Positions 3,031 to 51,962 of a stretch of DNA of 64,000 nucleotides are shown piece by piece; the stretch's first letter is position 1, and each line of letters starts with the position of its first letter. Made by a program: the position numbers and the translations under genes. Below the pieces are notes generated by a model. The model ran no database searches. It saw only the letters and a program-made list of their open reading frames with translations, and was not told the DNA's origin. The DNA comes from Escherichia coli (GTDB lineage Bacteria; Pseudomonadota; Gammaproteobacteria; Enterobacterales; Enterobacteriaceae), in NCBI RefSeq assembly GCF_022846255.1, contig NZ_AP025682.1; one strand, written 5' to 3'.

Positions 3031-3786
3031 ATGAAGCTTCGCCTGTCGGCGCTTGCTCTGGGAACTACGCTTCTGGTGGGGTGTGCGAGTTCCGGTACAG
3101 ATCAGCAAGGGCGTTCTGACCCGTTAGAAGGGTTTAACCGCACTATGTACAACTTCAACTTCAATGTATTAGACCCGTATATTGTTCGACCGGTCGCTGT
3201 CGCCTGGCGTGATTATGTTCCGCAACCTGCGCGTAACGGTTTGAGCAACTTTACCGGCAACCTTGAAGAACCTGCGGTGATGGTTAACTACTTCTTGCAG
3301 GGCGACCCTTATCAGGGGATGGTCCACTTTACCCGCTTTTTCCTGAATACCATTTTGGGAATGGGCGGCTTTATTGATGTTGCAGGGATGGCGAACCCGA
3401 AACTGCAACGGACTGAACCTCACCGCTTCGGTAGTACGCTTGGTCATTATGGTGTGGGTTATGGGCCGTACGTTCAGTTACCGTTCTACGGTAGCTTCAC
3501 GCTGCGTGATGACGGTGGTGATATGGCGGATGGTCTTTACCCGGTTCTTTCCTGGCTGACCTGGCCGATGTCTGTGGGTAAATGGACGCTTGAAGGGATA
3601 GAAACTCGTGCGCAGTTGTTGGATTCCGACGGTCTGCTGCGTCAGTCCTCCGATCCTTATATTATGGTGCGTGAAGCGTACTTCCAGCGTCATGATTTCA
3701 TCGCTAATGGCGGTGAACTCAAACCGCAGGAAAATCCGAACGCGCAAGCGATTCAGGATGATTTAAAAGATATCGATTCTGAATAA
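3031..3786 (+). CDS. mlaA: Intermembrane phospholipid transport lipoprotein MlaA (VacJ)
   Basis: 251-aa ORF with lipoprotein signal peptide and lipobox (LLVGCASSG). Confidence 0.93.
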   Translation: MKLRLSALALGTTLLVGCASSGTDQQGRSDPLEGFNRTMYNFNFNVLDPYIVRPVAVAWRDYVPQPARNGLSNFTGNLEEPAVMVNYFLQGDPYQGMVHFTRFFLNTILGMGGFIDVAGMANPKLQRTEPHRFGSTLGHYGVGYGPYVQLPFYGSFTLRDDGGDMADGLYPVLSWLTWPMSVGKWTLEGIETRAQLLDSDGLLRQSSDPYIMVREAYFQRHDFIANGGELKPQENPNAQAIQDDLKDIDSE

Positions 3787-3791
3787 GAAAC

Positions 3792-3824
3792 AAAAAAGGT
3801 GAGTCGCAAAACTCACCTTTTTTC
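3792..3824. terminator. Bidirectional intrinsic terminator between convergent mlaA and fadL
   Basis: Stem AGGTGAGT / ACTCACCT with loop CGCAAA, flanked by an A-run upstream and a T-run downstream, so it works on both strands. Confidence 0.65.
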
Positions 3825-3843: not shown

Positions 3844-5184
3844 TCAGAACGCGTAGTTAAAGTTAGTACCGAACAGCCAGGCTTTACCTTCAGACTCGAA
3901 CTGATATGGGCCTTCGTTAATTTTCACGCTCTGACCGTGCATATAAGAAACACCAACGTCGACTGAAGCGTCTTTATTAAATGCGTAAGTCGTACCTGCA
4001 CTCAGCCAGAAACGGTCCTGGTCCGGAATGGAGATAGAACGATTCTGTGCCGGAACTGGGCTGTCATCAAAGGCGATACCGGTACGGAAGGTCCAGTTAT
4101 CATCGTAGTAATAAGTGGTACCCAACGCGATGCGGTAAGCATCTTTAAAGCCTTCATGTTTCTGGAACAGCGTGTCGCCACTCGTTGAGGTCGCTTTCAG
4201 CTGCTGGAACTGACTCCAGCTGGTGTAAGCCAGGCTATAGTGAATTGCCCACTGCGGAGCAACACGGTTATAACCCGACACTTCCCACATTTCAGGCAGG
4301 TTCAGCGTCAGATAACCTGACTGCGTTGCGCCACCTGTCGCGGTAGGAATTGGCAAACCGTAGTTATTAAAAGCCGGGTTAAGATCGCTGCTGTAGTTAC
4401 CCTTGAAGTCAATTTTCACTTCAGAGCGGTAGGTCAATGCGTAGCGGTTGTTTTTATCCAGTTCATACAGGATACCGGCGTTCCAGCCAAAGCCCCACTG
4501 GTTACCGTTCAGGTGAGCGATTTTGGTATTACTGTCGATGCCGTTGGCGGTAGCTGCTAATGCTTGCCCCTGAGGAGTCAGCCAAGCAGGAGATTGCCTA
4601 ATCTGACCAGCCACCAGTTGCCCCAGATCGCCTGCGAAACGTTCAATTTTCGCGCGAGCGTAGACGGCGTTGAAACCAAGACCAAAGCTCCATGCATTAT
4701 TTAAGCGATATGCACCGCTTAAGTTCAGGTTCATGGTTTCGAGGTCGGTGGTACCACCGACAGAACCGCCTGCATAAGTATCGTTAAACTCTGTCGCCAG
4801 ACCATAGTTAGAGGTAATTGAAGCCCCCCAACCAAATTGGTCGTTAATCGGTGCAACAAAGTGCATGTTCGGAACCCATGCCGTAGGCGCGATGTTATCG
4901 GCTTTCAGGCTACGACCAGACGGAGACGTTCCGCTGATATTTACATCCGGATCAATATAAACCGCACCCGCAGAAAATGTCGGGCGGTCAAACATGGTAA
5001 TCAATGCGGGGTTACGGCTAACGTTACCTGCATCATCGGCAATTGCACCTTCCCCTGAATAAGCCCGGCCCAGGCCAGAGGAAGAAAATTCGTTTAACTG
5101 AAAGCCTGCCGACCAGGCCTGGGTGGAGATAAGTGCCACTGCGACTGCGAGAGCAGACTTTGTAAACAGGGTTTTCTGGCTCAT
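3844..5184 (-). CDS. fadL: Long-chain fatty acid outer membrane transporter FadL
   Basis: ORF-track frame 3844..5190; start trimmed to the third codon ([27 protein letters not shown] signal peptide); ends in the aromatic beta-barrel terminus ...NFNYAF. Confidence 0.93.
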
Positions 5185-5270
5185 GACCATAACCTCAATG
5201 ATTTATTTTTATACAAACTATGTTACGTGCTGTAACAGGAGCGCGAAGTGTAGGGTCTGAGGTACATCTT

Positions 5271-6020: not shown

Positions 6021-7331
6021 ATGGGTCAGGTTTTACCGCTGGTTACCCGCCAGGGCGATCGTATCGCCATTGTTAGCGGTTTACGTACGCCTTTTGCCCG
6101 ACAGGCGACGGCTTTTCATGGCATTCCCGCGGTTGATTTAGGGAAGATGGTGGTAGGCGAACTGCTGGCACGCACCGAGATCCCCGCTGAAGTGATTGAA
6201 CAACTGGTCTTCGGTCAGGTCGTTCAGATGCCTGAAGCCCCCAACATTGCGCGTGAAATTGTTCTCGGTACTGGAATGAATGTGCATACCGATGCTTACA
6301 GCGTTAGCCGCGCTTGCGCTACCAGTTTCCAGGCGGTTGCAAACGTCGCAGAAAGCCTGATGGCGGGAACTATTCGAGCGGGGATTGCCGGTGGGGCAGA
6401 TTCCTCTTCCGTATTGCCAATTGGCGTCAGTAAAAAACTGGCGCGCGTACTGGTTGATGTCAACAAAGCCCGCACAATGAGCCAGCGCCTGAAACTTTTT
6501 TCTCGCTTACGTTTGCGTGACTTAATGCCGGTGCCTCCGGCAGTGGCGGAATACTCCACTGGATTACGGATGGGGGACACCGCAGAGCAAATGGCGAAAA
6601 CCTACGGCATCACCCGAGAACAGCAAGATGCACTGGCGCACCGTTCGCATCAGCGTGCCGCTCAGGCGTGGTCAGAAGGTAAACTCAAAGAAGAGGTGAT
6701 GACTGCCTTTATCCCCCCTTATAAACAACCGCTTGTCGAAGACAACAATATTCGCGGTAATTCCTCTCTTGCTGATTACGCAAAGCTGCGCCCGGCGTTT
6801 GATCGTAAACACGGGACGGTAACGGCGGCGAACAGTACGCCGCTGACCGATGGCGCGGCAGCGGTGATCCTGATGACTGAATCCCGGGCGAAAGAATTAG
6901 GGCTGGTACCGCTGGGGTATCTGCGCAGCTACGCATTTACTGCGATAGATGTCTGGCAGGACATGTTGCTCGGTCCAGCCTGGTCAACACCGCTGGCGCT
7001 GGAACGTGCCGGATTGACGATGGGCGATCTGACATTGATCGATATGCACGAAGCCTTTGCCGCCCAGACGCTGGCCAATATTCAGTTGCTGGGTAGCGAA
7101 CGTTTTGCTCGCGACGTACTGGGGCGTGCACATGCCACTGGCGAAGTGGACGAGAGCAAATTTAACGTGCTTGGCGGTTCGATTGCTTATGGGCATCCCT
7201 TCGCAGCGACCGGCGCGCGGATGATTACCCAGACATTGCATGAACTTCGCCGTCGTGGCGGTGGATTTGGTTTAGTGACCGCCTGTGCTGCGGGTGGGCT
7301 TGGCGCAGCAATGGTTCTGGAGGCGGAATAA
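6021..7331 (+). CDS. fadI: 3-ketoacyl-CoA thiolase FadI (anaerobic beta-oxidation)
   Basis: 436-aa ORF with thiolase family signatures, including the C-terminal ...[13 protein letters not shown]. Confidence 0.95.
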
Positions 7332-9475
7332 TGGAAATGGCATCAGCGTTTACTCTTAATGTTCGTCTGGACAACATTGCTATCATCACCATCGACGTAC
7401 CGGGTGAGAAAATGAATACCCTGAAGGCGGAATTTGCCTCGCAGGTACGCGCCATTATTAAGCAACTCCGTGAAAACAAAGAGTTGCGTGGCGTGGTGTT
7501 TGTCTCCGCGAAACCAGACAACTTCATTGCTGGCGCAGACATCAACATGATCGGCAACTGCAAAACGGCGCAAGAAGCGGAAGTACTGGCGCGGCAGGGG
7601 CAACAGTTAATGGCGGAGATTCATGCTTTGCCCATTCCGGTTATCGCGGCTATTCATGGCGCTTGCCTGGGCGGCGGGCTGGAGTTGGCGCTGGCGTGCC
7701 ACGGTCGCGTGTGTACTGACGATCCTAAAACGGTGCTCGGTTTGCCTGAAGTACAACTTGGATTGTTACCCGGTTCAGGCGGTACCCAGCGTTTACCGCG
7801 TCTGATAGGTGTCAGCACAGCATTAGAGATGATCCTCACTGGAAAACAACTTCGGGCGAAACAGGCGGTAAAGCTGGGGTTGGTGGATGACGTCGTTCCG
7901 CACTCCATATTGCTGGAAGCCGCTGTTGAGCTGGCAAAGCAGGATCGCCCATCTTCACGCCCTCTACCTGTTCGCGAGCGTATTCTGGCGGGGCCGTTAG
8001 GTCGTGCGCTGCTGTTCAAAATGGTCGGCAAGAAAACAGAACACAAAACGCAAGGTAACTATCCGGCGACAGAACGCATCCTGGAGGTTGTCGAAACGGG
8101 ATTAGCGCAGGGCACCAGCAGCGGCTATGACGCTGAAGCACGGGCGTTTGGCGAACTGGCGATGACGCCGCAATCGCAGGCGCTGCGCAATATCTTTTTT
8201 GCCAGTACGGAAGTGAAAAAAGATCCCGGCAGTGATGCGCCGCCTGCGCCATTAAACAGCGTGGGGATTTTAGGTGGTGGCTTGATGGGCGGCGGTATTG
8301 CTTATGTCACTGCTTGTAAAGCGGGGCTTCCGGTCAGAATTAAAGATATCAACCCGCGGGGCATAAATCATGCGCTGAAGTACAGTTGGGATCAGCTTGA
8401 GGGCAAAGTTCGCCGTCGTCATCTCAAAGCCAGCGAACGTGACAAACAGCTGGCATTAATCTCCGGAACGACGGACTATTGCGGCTTTGCCCATCGAGAT
8501 CTGATTATTGAAGCGGTGTTTGAAAATCTCGAATTAAAACAACAGATGGTGGCGGAAGTGGAGCAAAATTGCGCTACTCATACCATCTTTGCTTCGAACA
8601 CGTCATCTTTACCGATTGGCGATATCGCCGCTCACGCCGCGCGACCTGAGCAAGTTATTGGCCTGCATTTCTTCAGTCCGGTGGAAAAAATGCCGCTGGT
8701 GGAGATTATTCCTCATGCGAGTACATCGGCGCAAACCATCGCCACCACGGTAAAACTGGCGAAAAAACAGGGCAAAACGCCAATTGTCGTGCGTGACAAA
8801 GCCGGGTTTTACGTCAATCGCATCTTAGCGCCTTACATCAATGAAGCTATCCGCATGTTGACCGAAGGCGAGCGTATTGAGCATATCGATGCCGCGCTGG
8901 TGAAATTTGGTTTTCCGGTAGGCCCAATCCAACTTTTGGATGAGGTAGGAATCGACACCGGGACTAAAATTATTCCTGTACTGGAAGCCGCTTATGGAGA
9001 ACGTTTTAGCGCGCCTGCAAATGTTGTTTCTTCAATTTTGAACGACGATCGCAAAGGCAGAAAAAATGGCCGGGGTTTCTATCTTTATGGTCAGAAAGGG
9101 CGTAAAAGCAAAAAACAGGTCGATCCCGCCATTTACCCGCTCATTGGCGCACAAGGGCAGGGGCGACTCTCCGCACCGCAGGTTGCTGAACGGTGTGTGA
9201 TGTTGATGCTGAATGAAGCTGTACGTTGTCTGGACGAGCAGGTTATCCGTAGCGTGCGTGACGGGGATATTGGCGCGGTATTTGGCATTGGTTTTCCGCC
9301 ATTTCTCGGTGGTCCGTTCCGCTACATCGATTCTCTCGGTGCGGGTGAAGTGGTTGCAATAATGCAACGACTGGCCACGCAGTATGGTTCCCGTTTTACC
9401 CCTTGCGATCGTTTAGTTGAGATGAGCGAGCGTGGGGAAAGTTTTTGGAAAACAACTGCAACTGACCTGCAATAA
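7331..9475 (+). CDS. fadJ: Multifunctional fatty acid oxidation complex alpha subunit FadJ (enoyl-CoA hydratase / 3-hydroxyacyl-CoA dehydrogenase)
   Basis: 714-aa ORF; ATG overlaps the fadI stop (TAATGG), suggesting translational coupling; carries crotonase-fold and NAD-binding [10 protein letters not shown] motifs. Confidence 0.95.
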
Positions 9476-9611
9476 GAAGGTCAAAGTTATATGAATCCGC
9501 GCTGAATGGCGGAGTGTTGCTCAAAATGTAAACTCATATTGACTATACTTACGCCATTGAGGTAAAAAACAGCGTTTCATTCGGTGAATGGATAAGGCAC
9601 AATGCCGGCCA

Positions 9612-9648
9612 CCGTTTTCTTTCTCTGGTTTCAGATGAAAGAAAACGG
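9612..9648 (+). other. Perfect 12-bp inverted repeat (hairpin) in the fadJ-sixA intergenic region / sixA leader
   Basis: CCGTTTTCTTTC - 13-nt loop - GAAAGAAAACGG, about 30 nt upstream of the sixA start; no U-tract follows. Confidence 0.45.
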
Positions 9649-9677
9649 GCGAATCTGGTTAACAAAAGCGGTGCAAT

Positions 9678-10163
9678 ATGCAAGTTTTTATCATGCGTCA
9701 CGGCGACGCAGCCCTCGATGCCGCCAGTGATTCGGTTCGTCCTCTGACCACTAACGGTTGTGACGAATCTCGCCTGATGGCGAACTGGCTGAAAGGTCAA
9801 AAAGTGGAAATCGAACGCGTTCTGGTGAGCCCGTTCCTGCGAGCCGAGCAAACACTGGAAGAAGTAGGGGATTGTCTGAACCTGCCTTCCAGTGCAGAAG
9901 TTCTGCCGGAGTTAACGCCCTGCGGCGATGTTGGTCTGGTCGGCGCCTATTTGCAGGCGTTGACCAATGAAGGTGTTGCTTCGGTACTGGTGATCTCCCA
10001 CTTACCGTTAGTCGGGTATCTGGTTGCCGAGTTATGTCCGGGCGAAACGCCGCCTATGTTTACCACGTCAGCGATTGCCAGCGTAACGCTTGATGAAAGC
10101 GGAAAAGGCCAATTCAACTGGCAAATGAGCCCTTGTAATTTGAAGATGGCAAAAGCAATTTAA
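9678..10163 (+). CDS. sixA: Phosphohistidine phosphatase SixA
   Basis: 161-aa ORF starting MQVFIMRHGDA (RHG histidine-phosphatase motif). Confidence 0.92.
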   Translation: MQVFIMRHGDAALDAASDSVRPLTTNGCDESRLMANWLKGQKVEIERVLVSPFLRAEQTLEEVGDCLNLPSSAEVLPELTPCGDVGLVGAYLQALTNEGVASVLVISHLPLVGYLVAELCPGETPPMFTTSAIASVTLDESGKGQFNWQMSPCNLKMAKAI

Positions 10164-10171
10164 GCAATCAA

Positions 10172-10208
10172 TGCCCGGTTACGTGCGCGTACACCGGGCA
10201 GTTTCTCC
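10172..10208 (+). terminator. Probable intrinsic terminator after sixA
   Basis: Stem TGCCCGGT / ACCGGGCA with a 13-nt loop, followed by GTTTCTCC. Confidence 0.45.
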
Positions 10209-49628: not shown

Positions 49629-49817
49629 AGCGCAAATATTCCCTTGCACAAAACAAAGTGGTAAGTATGCAAATTGAGATGGCGCAATTCATTGATGCAG
49701 CGCAGTTAAGCAAGATAATCAGAAAGGATTAATGCAAATTAAGAGAATAAAAAACCGGAAATAGTGACTATTTCCGGTTCAGATATCCGCAGCGTAAAGC
49801 TGCGGATGATGACGAGA

Positions 49818-51962
49818 TTACTGCTGCTGTGCAGACTGAATCGCAGTCAGCGCGATGGTGTAGACGATATCGTCAACCAGTGCGCCACGGGACAGGTCGT
49901 TAACCGGCTTGCGCATACCCTGCAGCATCGGTCCGATAGAGATCAGGTCAGCAGAACGCTGTACCGCTTTGTAGGTGGTGTTACCGGTGTTCAGATCCGG
50001 GAAGATGAACACGGTAGCGCGACCTGCAACCGGAGAGTTCGGTGCTTTGGATTTCGCAACGTCAGCCATTACCGCAGCGTCGTACTGCAGCGGACCGTCG
50101 ATCATCAGGTCAGGACGTTTTTCCTGCGCCAGACGAGTTGCTTCGCGAACTTTTTCTACGTCGCTACCAGCACCAGAAGTCCCGGTGGAGTAGGAGAGCA
50201 TAGCAACGCGCGGTTCGATACCGAAGGCCGCAGCGGAATCTGCGGACTGAATCGCGATTTCTGCCAGCTGTTCTGCGGTCGGATCCGGGTTGATCGCACA
50301 GTCACCGTAAACGTAAACCTGTTCCGGCAGCAGCATGAAGAACACGGAAGATACCAGGGAGCTGCCCGGTGCAGTTTTGATCAGCTGCAGCGGCGGACGG
50401 ATGGTGTTTGCGGTAGTGTGAACAGCACCGGAAACCAGACCATCAACTTCATCCTGTTCCAGCATCAGCGTACCGAGAACCACGTTGTCTTCCAGCTGTT
50501 CGCGGGCAACGGTTTCGGTCATGCCTTTGTTCTTACGCAGTTCGACCAGACGACCAACATAGCTTTCGCGAACCACTTCTGGATCAACGATTTCAATGCC
50601 TGCACCCAGTTCTACACCCTGAGACGCTGCAACACGGTTGATCTCTGCCGGATTACCCAGCAGTACGCAAGTTGCGATACCACGTTCAGCACAGATAGCG
50701 GCTGCCTTAACGGTACGCGGTTCGTCACCTTCCGGCAGAACGATACGTTTGCCCGCTTTGCGCGCAAGTTCAGTCAGCTGATAACGGAACGCCGGCGGAG
50801 ACAGACGACGGCTGCGCTCAGAAGTGGCCGTCAGAGAATCGATCCAGTCAGCGTTGATGTAGTTAGCAACGTATTCCTGAACTTTCTCGATACGCTCGTG
50901 ATCGTCAACCGGAACTTCCAGGTTGAAGCTCTGCAGGCTCAGAGAAGTCTGCCAGGTGTTGGTGTTCACCATAAATACCGGCAGGCCTGTAGCGAAAGCA
51001 CGTTCGCACAGTTTAGAAATGCGCGCGTCCATTTCGTAGCCGCCAGTCAGCAGCAGGGCACCGATTTCTACGCCGTTCATGGCAGCCAGGCACGCGGCAA
51101 CCAGCACGTCAGGACGGTCTGCGGAAGTCACCAGCAGAGAACCGGCACGGAAGTGCTCCAGCATGTGTGGAATGCTGCGTGCGCAGAAAGTGACGGATTT
51201 AACGCGGCGAGTATTGATGTCGCCTTCGTTGATGATGGTCGCATTCAGGTGGCGAGCCATATCGATCGCACGAGTCGCGATCAGGTCAAAGCTCCACGGC
51301 ACCGCGCCGAGAACCGGCAGCGGGCTGGATTCTTGCAGCTTCGCCGGATCAACATTGTTTACTTTAGCTTTGGAAGAGTCGTCGAAAATCTCGGACAGAT
51401 CCGGGCGAGTACGACCCTGTTCATCAACCGGTGCGTTCAGTTTGTTAACGATAACGCCGGTGATGTTGGTGTTTTTGGCACCGCCGAAGCTGTTGCGGGT
51501 CAGTTCGATACGCTCTTTCAGCTGTTCCGGGGTGTCAGTGCCCTGAGACATAACGAAGACGATTTCCGCATTCAGCGTTTTAGCGATTTCGTAGTTCAGA
51601 GACTGGGCAAACTGGTGTTTACGTGTCGGGACCAGACCTTCAACCAGAACGACTTCAGCGTCTTTGGTGTTAGCGTGGTAGTTCGCGATGATCTCTTCCA
51701 TCAGCACATCTTTCTGATTGCTGGAAAGCAGACCTTCAACGTAGCTCATTTTCAGCGGTTCAGCGGCCGTCGTGGTGGAAGAGTTCGCACGCACGATAGT
51801 CGTAGTCTGATCGGGCGCATCGCCACCGGTACGCGGCTGAGCGATAGGTTTGAAAACGCTCAGACGAACGCCTTTGCGTTCCATTGCACGGATCACGCCA
51901 AGGCTGACGCTGGTCAGACCGACGCTGGTTCCGGTAGGGATCAGCATAATAATACGGGACAC
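49818..51962 (-). CDS. pta: Phosphate acetyltransferase
   Basis: 714 aa, [31 protein letters not shown]..., full-length Pta with N-terminal regulatory and C-terminal catalytic domains. Confidence 0.95.

Follow-up and report, generated by a model that had tools for sequence, protein, structure and literature searches.

A conserved hairpin in the structured sixA leader of Escherichia coli and other Enterobacteriaceae, with RNA 3′ ends mapped at its foot

The perfect inverted repeat that lies between fadJ and sixA in the window (the whole stretch of 64,000 nt of Escherichia coli DNA that was analysed) forms a genuine hairpin in the RNA of the sixA strand. It is placed downstream of the mapped sixA transcription start, in the sixA leader, of which it is the third and largest stem-loop (SL3). 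Judging by the sequences compared, this structured leader is conserved throughout the Enterobacteriaceae and its modules recur in other Enterobacterales, while selection on SL3 acts on the pairing and not on the sequence. RNA 3′ ends have been mapped at the foot of the hairpin, and SL3 probably sets or protects the RNA 3′ end of a leader RNA of about 83 nt, either as an exonuclease barrier after cleavage or by weak attenuation, and would thereby contribute to the control of sixA past transcription initiation.

The arms of the stem, 9612-9623 (CCGTTTTCTTTC) and 9637-9648 (GAAAGAAAACGG) on the + strand, were recovered by a repeat finder with 12/12 complementary positions and a gap of 13 nt, in agreement with the sequence-only reading from which this analysis started. 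That reading had also located the repeat about 30 nt before sixA and past fadJ; the distance measured from the end of the 3′ arm to the sixA ATG was 29 nt, with the fadJ coding sequence (7331..9475, +) as upstream neighbour and the sixA coding sequence (9678..10163, +) encoding a phosphohistidine phosphatase of 161 aa. These limits come from the list of open reading frames and from RefSeq annotation, which in the case of sixA is that of identical loci, and the gene names follow the RefSeq annotation of matching E. coli loci. The bases directly 3′ of the 9648 arm are GCGAATCTGGTT. SixA homologues match Pfam His_Phos_1. Some of the database SixA entries (P0001, P0005, P0006, P0008, and P0037) have 192-223 aa and not 161, and seem to have start codons called too far upstream, which carries the reading frame into the conserved leader.

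The same earlier reading considered a 12-bp perfect stem improbable by chance, a judgement that the calculation bears out. Under a first-order Markov model, 0.10 perfect inverted repeats of at least 12 bp with a gap of 3-30 nt are expected per 64-kb window; three were observed, and the other two are ordinary terminators. When the complete E. coli genomes were searched with a query of 361 nt around the site, the sixA leader site was found as a single copy in 5425 of 5426 genomes, with 95-100% identity. REP/BIME repeats were rejected as a candidate on the same basis, as the site occurs at a single position in each of the 5425 E. coli genomes.

Regarding the other two repeats of the window, the first is a perfect 13-bp inverted repeat at 3792-3823 (AAAAAAGGTGAGT / ACTCACCTTTTTT), located between the convergent open reading frames 3031-3786 (+) and 3844-5190 (-), and it resembles an ordinary bidirectional intrinsic terminator. 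The second, a perfect 12-bp repeat at 49753-49808 (AACCGGAAATAG / CTATTTCCGGTT), comes after an A-run (a T-run when the - strand is read) and looks like the terminator of the - strand open reading frame 49818-51962; after this repeat comes a second hairpin (ATCCGCAGC...GCTGCGGAT).

The start of sixA transcription is given at 9574..9575 (+) by two published 5′-end maps made with independent methods. By SMRT-Cappable-seq, b2340 is a monocistronic operon that starts at 2456915/2456916 on the reverse strand, which corresponds to window 9575/9574 (PMC6131387, supplementary file 4). By dRNA-seq, the start RVS_(II)-2454939 in U00096.2 equals 2456916 in version 3 (PMC4681348); the offset of 1977 was checked by the yfcZ start, which is present in both lists. 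The conversion to MG1655 (NC_000913.3) was 2456812 + (9678 - window position), with the sixA ATG at 2456812, and from the mapped start to the ATG the sixA 5′ UTR has 104 nt. The promoter consists of a -35 hexamer TTGACT (9539..9544, +) that fits the mapped start and, after an 18-nt spacer, a conserved -10 hexamer TAAAAA (9563..9568, +) placed 5 nt before the mapped start G9574. TTGACT is invariant in the 81 Enterobacteriaceae sequences compared and recurs in Erwinia and Pantoea. TAAAAA was missed by our promoter scan, since the scan needs a T at position 6 of the -10 element. The sixA promoter is a sigma-70 promoter of its own. By eye only, we also considered GcvB pairing, an ArcA box, and other promoter types (sigma-54, and sigma-S with a -10 element TATACT at 9544-9549); they were dropped, either for poor matches or in view of the fit of the mapped start to TTGACT/TAAAAA.

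The 84-nt leader folds as three consecutive hairpins with an energy of -30.8 kcal/mol (z = -4.46). In this fold, SL1 (9576..9592, +) is UUUCAUUC-NNN-GAAUGGA with 7 bp and starts 2 nt after the 5′ end, at +3. Its loop triplet is variable (14 versions), the changes in its stem are nearly all from U-A to U-G, and pairing is kept in 97.9% of the cells. SL2 (9596..9606, +) is GGCA-CAA-UGCC in the fold, with an invariant stem and a C to A change in the loop as the sole variation; it has no covariation support because the stem never varies. SL3 occupies 9610..9651 (+) and includes the 12-bp core, an apical helix of 4 bp (9624-9627 / 9632-9635), and the basal CAYC/GRUG pairing seen in the family. According to the E. 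coli folds, the 13-nt gap is only partly loop, as 9624-9627 contribute 4 extra pairs with 9632-9635, the apex is a GUUU tetraloop, U9636 is bulged, and the hairpin holds 16 pairs in all. The core is A/U-rich, with G-C pairs at 5/12 positions. In the ensemble of the full leader, the pair probability was 0.99-1.0 for 10/12 core pairs and about 0.6 for the two outermost, and by this modelling SL3 is a module that forms autonomously and is very stable. A basal helix CCGG/CUGG (9605-9608 with 9655-9658), considered with the segment folded alone, was rejected: it shows no covariation, shares 1-2 nt with SL2, and is broken in CTGT taxa.

Downstream of SL3, the translation initiation region UUAACAAAAGCGGUGCAAUAUG (9659..9680, +) is single-stranded and invariant, being at least 90% identical in the 81 sequences and kept in Yersiniaceae, Erwiniaceae, and the distant locus L090. 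It contains an A-rich stretch with three ARN triplets (9661-9669), an SD-like GCGGUG (9668-9673), and the AUG (9678-9680). Translational control of sixA was among the roles first suggested for the repeat. Some form of it may operate, but not by simple masking of the SD: the predicted unpaired probability was 0.33-0.34 for the SD and 0.45 for the AUG, the same with or without the leader. An SD-sequestering switch or RNA thermometer was discarded on this unchanged accessibility of SD and AUG. A leader peptide read from ATG 9588 was also discarded, considering that this frame gives 63 different peptides, of about 10-48 aa among the commonest, in which the shared residues are only those encoded by invariant nucleotides. 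Neither a leader peptide nor a convincing antiterminator was found in the sixA leader.

In order to compare this region across the family, 80 sixA loci were fetched, with one genome per species, and 81 Enterobacteriaceae sequences were compared, from genera including Escherichia, Citrobacter, Salmonella, Enterobacter, Klebsiella, Raoultella, Kosakonia, Lelliottia, Leclercia, Trabulsiella, and Kluyvera. The spacer between fadJ and sixA was about 200 nt in most of the sampled loci. Across genera, 9538-9611 and 9649-9722 are nearly invariant and 9612-9648 is the least conserved part, and a long hairpin is found between the same two anchors in all 81 sequences. These hairpins measure 42-65 nt, fall into 25 mutually unalignable sequence types, and have bulge-interrupted stems of about 14 to 25 pairs. 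With plain MAFFT alignments the upper stem escaped RNAalifold, since hairpins of such unlike length and sequence defeat this approach; each sequence was instead folded separately, ungapped types were grouped, and pairs were counted only where the register was safe.

Within the ungapped groups, double compensation was observed at 21 pairs and changes of the G-U type at 39. In the alignment of 40 species, the basal six pairs of SL3 showed double-sided changes at 4/6. When SL1, SL2, and these basal six pairs were taken together, there were 27 cells with changes on both sides, against 9.8 ± 3.1 after shuffling (0/500 shuffles reached the observed value), and 93.5% of the cells in the 40 species were paired, against 18-50% when the partner column was slid. 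The sequence-only reading had named compensatory base pairs across the Enterobacteriaceae as a way of checking the hairpin, and both compensatory and G-U changes are present. A sequence that drifts while its pairing is kept is the signature of hairpins that act by shape.

The strand on which the structure is selected was also evident. The mean folding energy of SL3 was -23.0 kcal/mol on the + strand and -15.7 kcal/mol on the - strand, on average 7.3 kcal/mol weaker, and the + fold was more stable in 80/81 sequences. The + strand folds hold 274 G-U pairs, and they fold better because these turn into A-C mismatches on the other strand. The repeat was also considered as a palindrome in DNA recognised by a dimeric protein and as a site of RNase III processing; in favour of these proposals, the palindrome is perfect in E. 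coli, and the stem has 16 pairs there and reaches about 25 in some other genera. The first of these proposals is refuted, as the sequence of the half-sites is not conserved between genera while the pairing is, and the G-U pairs are found on the + strand only. The second finds no support in the mapped 3′ ends, which lie outside the stem and are not staggered inside it; besides, the stems of about 14-25 pairs are interrupted by bulges, and in E. coli the 16 pairs with a bulge do not make two near-continuous turns. A role of either kind is extremely improbable.

The first search for SixA homologues returned close Enterobacteriaceae only, and more distant loci were obtained with a representative search and with a second search seeded with Rahnella SixA. 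The whole leader is kept in Cedecea-like, Shimwellia-like, and Atlantibacter loci. In Yersiniaceae (Rahnella, Serratia, Yersinia) the -10/start region, SL2 (here GGCAAAAUGCC), and the initiation region are kept, and a structured domain of about 110-190 nt takes the place of the central hairpin. In Erwiniaceae (Erwinia, Pantoea) the promoter, SL1 with G-U pairs at different positions, and the initiation region are kept, together with a short unrelated hairpin, and SL2 is absent. SixA of locus L090 is 59% identical; at a locus where SixA is 51% identical there was no recognisable leader. In two of the Yersiniaceae loci (L092, Serratia, and L093, Yersinia) the ribosome-binding site is preceded by UUUUGU[UC]AACAA, in which a U-run and an A-run are almost perfectly self-complementary; by folding back, this segment could mask the A-rich stretch, which in E. 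coli is single-stranded.

Mapping of RNA ends had been suggested as a further check of the hairpin, and published Term-seq data place RNA 3′ ends at its foot, at 9655 and 9657 (+), 7 and 9 nt past the perfect stem. They are listed by Adams et al. 2021 as 2456835(-) and 2456833(-), with the class "orphan" and at -23/-21 from the sixA start (PMC7815308, supplementary files 1 and 3), and the printed context ...GAAAGAAAACGGGCGAATCTG confirms this placement. Both ends are listed for the second and third conditions, and neither is in the LB OD 0.4 sheet (PMC7815308); by caption order only, the second and third sheets would be LB OD 2.0 and M63 glucose (PMC7815308). Taking the start site and these 3′ ends together, an RNA of 82-84 nt is predicted. 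The 5′ and 3′ ends come from different experiments, and we infer that the 5′ end at 9574 and the 3′ ends at 9655/9657 belong to one molecule.

As Term-seq alone assigns no 5′ end, SL3 could also be the protective 3′-terminal hairpin of fadIJ read-through transcripts, in line with the early suggestion of a stabiliser for the fadIJ messenger. The hairpin is 137 nt past the fadJ stop and on the same strand, and the absence of the 9655/9657 ends from the LB OD 0.4 sheet leaves room for a condition-dependent read-through source. Nevertheless, the hairpin is downstream of the sixA start site and is conserved as a single block with the sixA promoter and initiation region, and fadIJ (b2342|b2341) is a separate operon from 2460509, defined by full-length capped reads that do not include sixA (PMC6131387). 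Moreover, a third "orphan" 3′ end at 2456929 (window 9561) is found in the LB OD 0.4 sheet with a Rho score of 1.02 ("No") and an intrinsic-terminator score of 6.7 (PMC7815308). This end is upstream of the sixA start and so belongs to fadIJ transcripts or to those from a start at 9491; it fits a fadIJ transcript end and, lying at the base of a different hairpin, is enough to explain the upstream transcripts. The assignment of SL3 to fadIJ is thus very unlikely.

Several other features were observed in the same intergenic region. The long hairpin at 9502-9561, in which CUGAAUGGCGGAGUGU... pairs with ...AUACUUACGCCAUUGAG (-22 kcal/mol, z = -3.7), has the 9561 end exactly at its foot, and its 3′ arm is also the sixA promoter spacer. 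It is strong in Escherichia, and elsewhere only a short AUGGY/GCCAU helix is left. An extra dRNA-seq start is listed at window 9491 (2455022 in the old numbering), 16 nt past the fadJ stop (PMC4681348), and together with the 9561 end it would make an intergenic transcript of 71 nt. Across the fadJ stop codon there is a small hairpin (9464-9482), with GACCU (9464-9468) and AGGUC (9478-9482), whose arms differ in sequence in other genera and still pair, as in GACCUC/GAGGUC.

With respect to termination, the sequence-only reading described the hairpin as one that is not a canonical intrinsic terminator, and this is correct in E. coli, where a pattern scan of 9300-10400 found no terminator-like site and the tail GCGAAUCUG (GCGAAUCUGGUU) has only 2 U and no U-tract. 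The absence of a U-tract, as first stated, is valid for Escherichia (AAUCUGGUU) and Salmonella, the U-poor exceptions; the consensus tail of the family, AUUCUGGUU, is more U-rich, with a borderline U-tract, and at least 5 U are found in the 8 nt past the basal helix in 64/81 Enterobacteriaceae sequences. Some other Enterobacterales are terminator-like: Erwinia persicina and locus L090, alone in carrying a U-tract directly past the stem, have a hairpin with a T-rich tail at the equivalent position that passed the terminator-like scan. SL3 shares with intrinsic terminators and attenuators a stable hairpin (16 pairs) followed by 3′ ends 7-9 nt downstream, and it differs from them in the A/U-rich stem and the tail without U-tract of E. 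coli. The 9655/9657 ends are also compatible with an exonuclease stall, and true intrinsic termination is doubtful in E. coli because the tail has only 2 U.

These observations bear on the possibility of a regulated transcription attenuator, in which an alternative pairing with the 5′ base of SL3, or a bound factor, would choose between termination and read-through. The 3′ ends at +7/+9 from the stem are typical of hairpin-dependent termination, and the terminator-like tails of Erwinia and L090 go in the same direction. In E. coli an alternative helix of -9.7 kcal/mol can be drawn between the loop and 3′ arm of SL1 (GGUGAAUGG, 9583-9591) and CCGGCCACC (9605-9613), and cognate SL1/SL3 pairs were slightly better than non-cognate ones (-7.9 vs -6.7 kcal/mol). 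However, this helix opens only the two outermost of the 12 bp and so cannot block the hairpin, the gap between cognate and non-cognate pairs is small and confounded by relatedness, and the E. coli tail is poor in U. The SL1/SL3 pairing was rejected as an antiterminator, given its weak signal and a stem that would stay closed. Regarding Rho, no termination region was flagged in the sixA leader at LB OD 0.4, a further point against attenuation; the nearest one, at 2456198 (-), window about 10290, has a Rho score of 9.3 and is located about 130 nt past the sixA stop (PMC7815308, supplementary file 2), which suggests that the sixA mRNA is itself terminated by Rho. Taken as a whole, a regulated attenuator is quite unlikely.

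We return to the most likely role of SL3, that of setting and protecting the 3′ end of the leader RNA, for which two routes can be proposed. In the first one, an endonucleolytic cut would occur in the single-stranded UUAACAAAAG and 3′-exonucleases would then stall at SL3. A MazF cut 16 nt before the sixA AUG is listed in a study of the MazF regulon (PMC5001579), and the invariant ACA at 9662-9664 matches the reported position. In the second one, a weak hairpin-dependent termination would take place just past the stem; it is plausible from the terminator-like versions of other lineages and doubtful in E. coli. By either route, transcripts would be trimmed to, or left at, 7-9 nt beyond the stem, and the product would be a stable leader RNA of about 82-84 nt formed by SL1, SL2, and SL3. 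The share of this dead-end RNA with respect to full-length sixA mRNA would then set sixA expression. The split may depend on the growth condition, since the 3′ ends are found in two conditions and not in the LB OD 0.4 sheet. Both the route of 3′ end formation, nuclease barrier or weak termination, and the effect on sixA output are what we infer from the position of these ends. Against the mechanism, it must be considered that read-through fadIJ transcripts could supply the 9655/9657 ends, that these ends are listed for two conditions only, in sheets that carry neither Rho nor intrinsic-terminator scores for them, and that the leader leaves the modelled accessibility of SD and AUG unaffected, so no effect on translation is predicted.

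The leader RNA of about 83 nt might in turn be a trans-acting sRNA derived from the sixA 5′ UTR, with SL3 as its 3′-terminal hairpin and the invariant sequences as seed or protein-binding site. With both of its ends discrete and mapped, it would be a compact, stable RNA of three hairpins, the sequence conservation outside the hairpin is extreme, and the source dataset was built to discover RNAs derived from 5′ UTRs (PMC7815308). On the other hand, the RNA does not have the poly-U 3′ tail that is normal for Hfq-dependent sRNAs, and the most conserved single-stranded stretch, the initiation region, falls outside its 83 nt. Among the supplementary files searched, sixA was found in the 3′-end tables (supplementary files 1 and 3) and not in the others (PMC7815308), and a link between sixA and an sRNA was not found in the literature searched. 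It is consequently unlikely that the leader RNA works as an sRNA of this kind.

A key aspect of the leader is that its flanks are more conserved than a nuclease barrier needs. The near-invariance covers about 100 nt of non-coding sequence, the promoter spacer, and the first sixA codons. The conservation of the promoter spacer may come in part from its second role as 3′ arm of the hairpin at 9502-9561, and the conservation of the remaining flanks suggests an extra factor acting on the leader. It is conceivable, though on balance we do not expect it, that the whole leader is a new class of cis-regulatory RNA in which a factor decides between the RNA of about 83 nt and productive sixA mRNA. Such a factor would be a protein, a small RNA, or a metabolite tied to phosphohistidine/PTS-Ntr signalling or to starvation, and the short RNA might act in trans as well.

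By analogy, SL3 resembles protective stem-loops and 5′-UTR 3′ ends in mechanism and leaders of the ompA type in architecture. The ompA 5′ UTR is an mRNA-stabilising leader of more than 100 nt, conserved in enteric bacteria, with a hairpin a few nt from the 5′ end, a second large hairpin after it, and single-stranded A/U-rich segments beside the ribosome-binding site. The sixA leader shares this layout; it shows no sequence similarity, so that the likeness is one of architecture alone, and it would differ in yielding a discrete short RNA, if the two ends are linked as we suppose. As regards mechanism, stem-loops are described by Dar and Sorek (2018, PMC6061677) as fixing stable 3′ ends by blocking 3′-to-5′ exonucleases after Rho termination or cleavage. 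The likeness with SL3 consists of a stable hairpin without U-tract, precise 3′ ends a few nt past the stem, and a stem whose sequence is free while the pairing is kept, and the difference is the location of SL3 inside a 5′ UTR, 20-30 nt before the start codon, and not at a gene end. The sixA site is also listed among the 5′-UTR 3′ ends of Adams et al. 2021 (PMC7815308), with which it shares the logic of short leader versus full-length mRNA; it is listed there as "orphan" and, in the supplementary files searched, in the 3′-end tables only.

Rfam was searched with 9000-10500 on both strands, at E values up to 10, and gave three matches at chance level, none of them on the leader. In the literature searched on sixA, including the old names yfcW/yfcX, no description of the leader was found, and a term search of a recent paper on SixA physiology returned no sixA UTR and nothing on the control of sixA expression. 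SixA dephosphorylates the phosphohistidine of ArcB. It also removes phosphate from the phosphohistidines of NPr and nucleoside diphosphate kinase. In this context, the conserved hairpin, its near-invariant flanks, and the 3′ ends listed by condition offer a testable handle on the regulation of sixA, and the sixA leader is a candidate RNA family not yet in Rfam. If SL3 is only a nuclease barrier, it would be a clean and well-conserved example of an ordinary mechanism.
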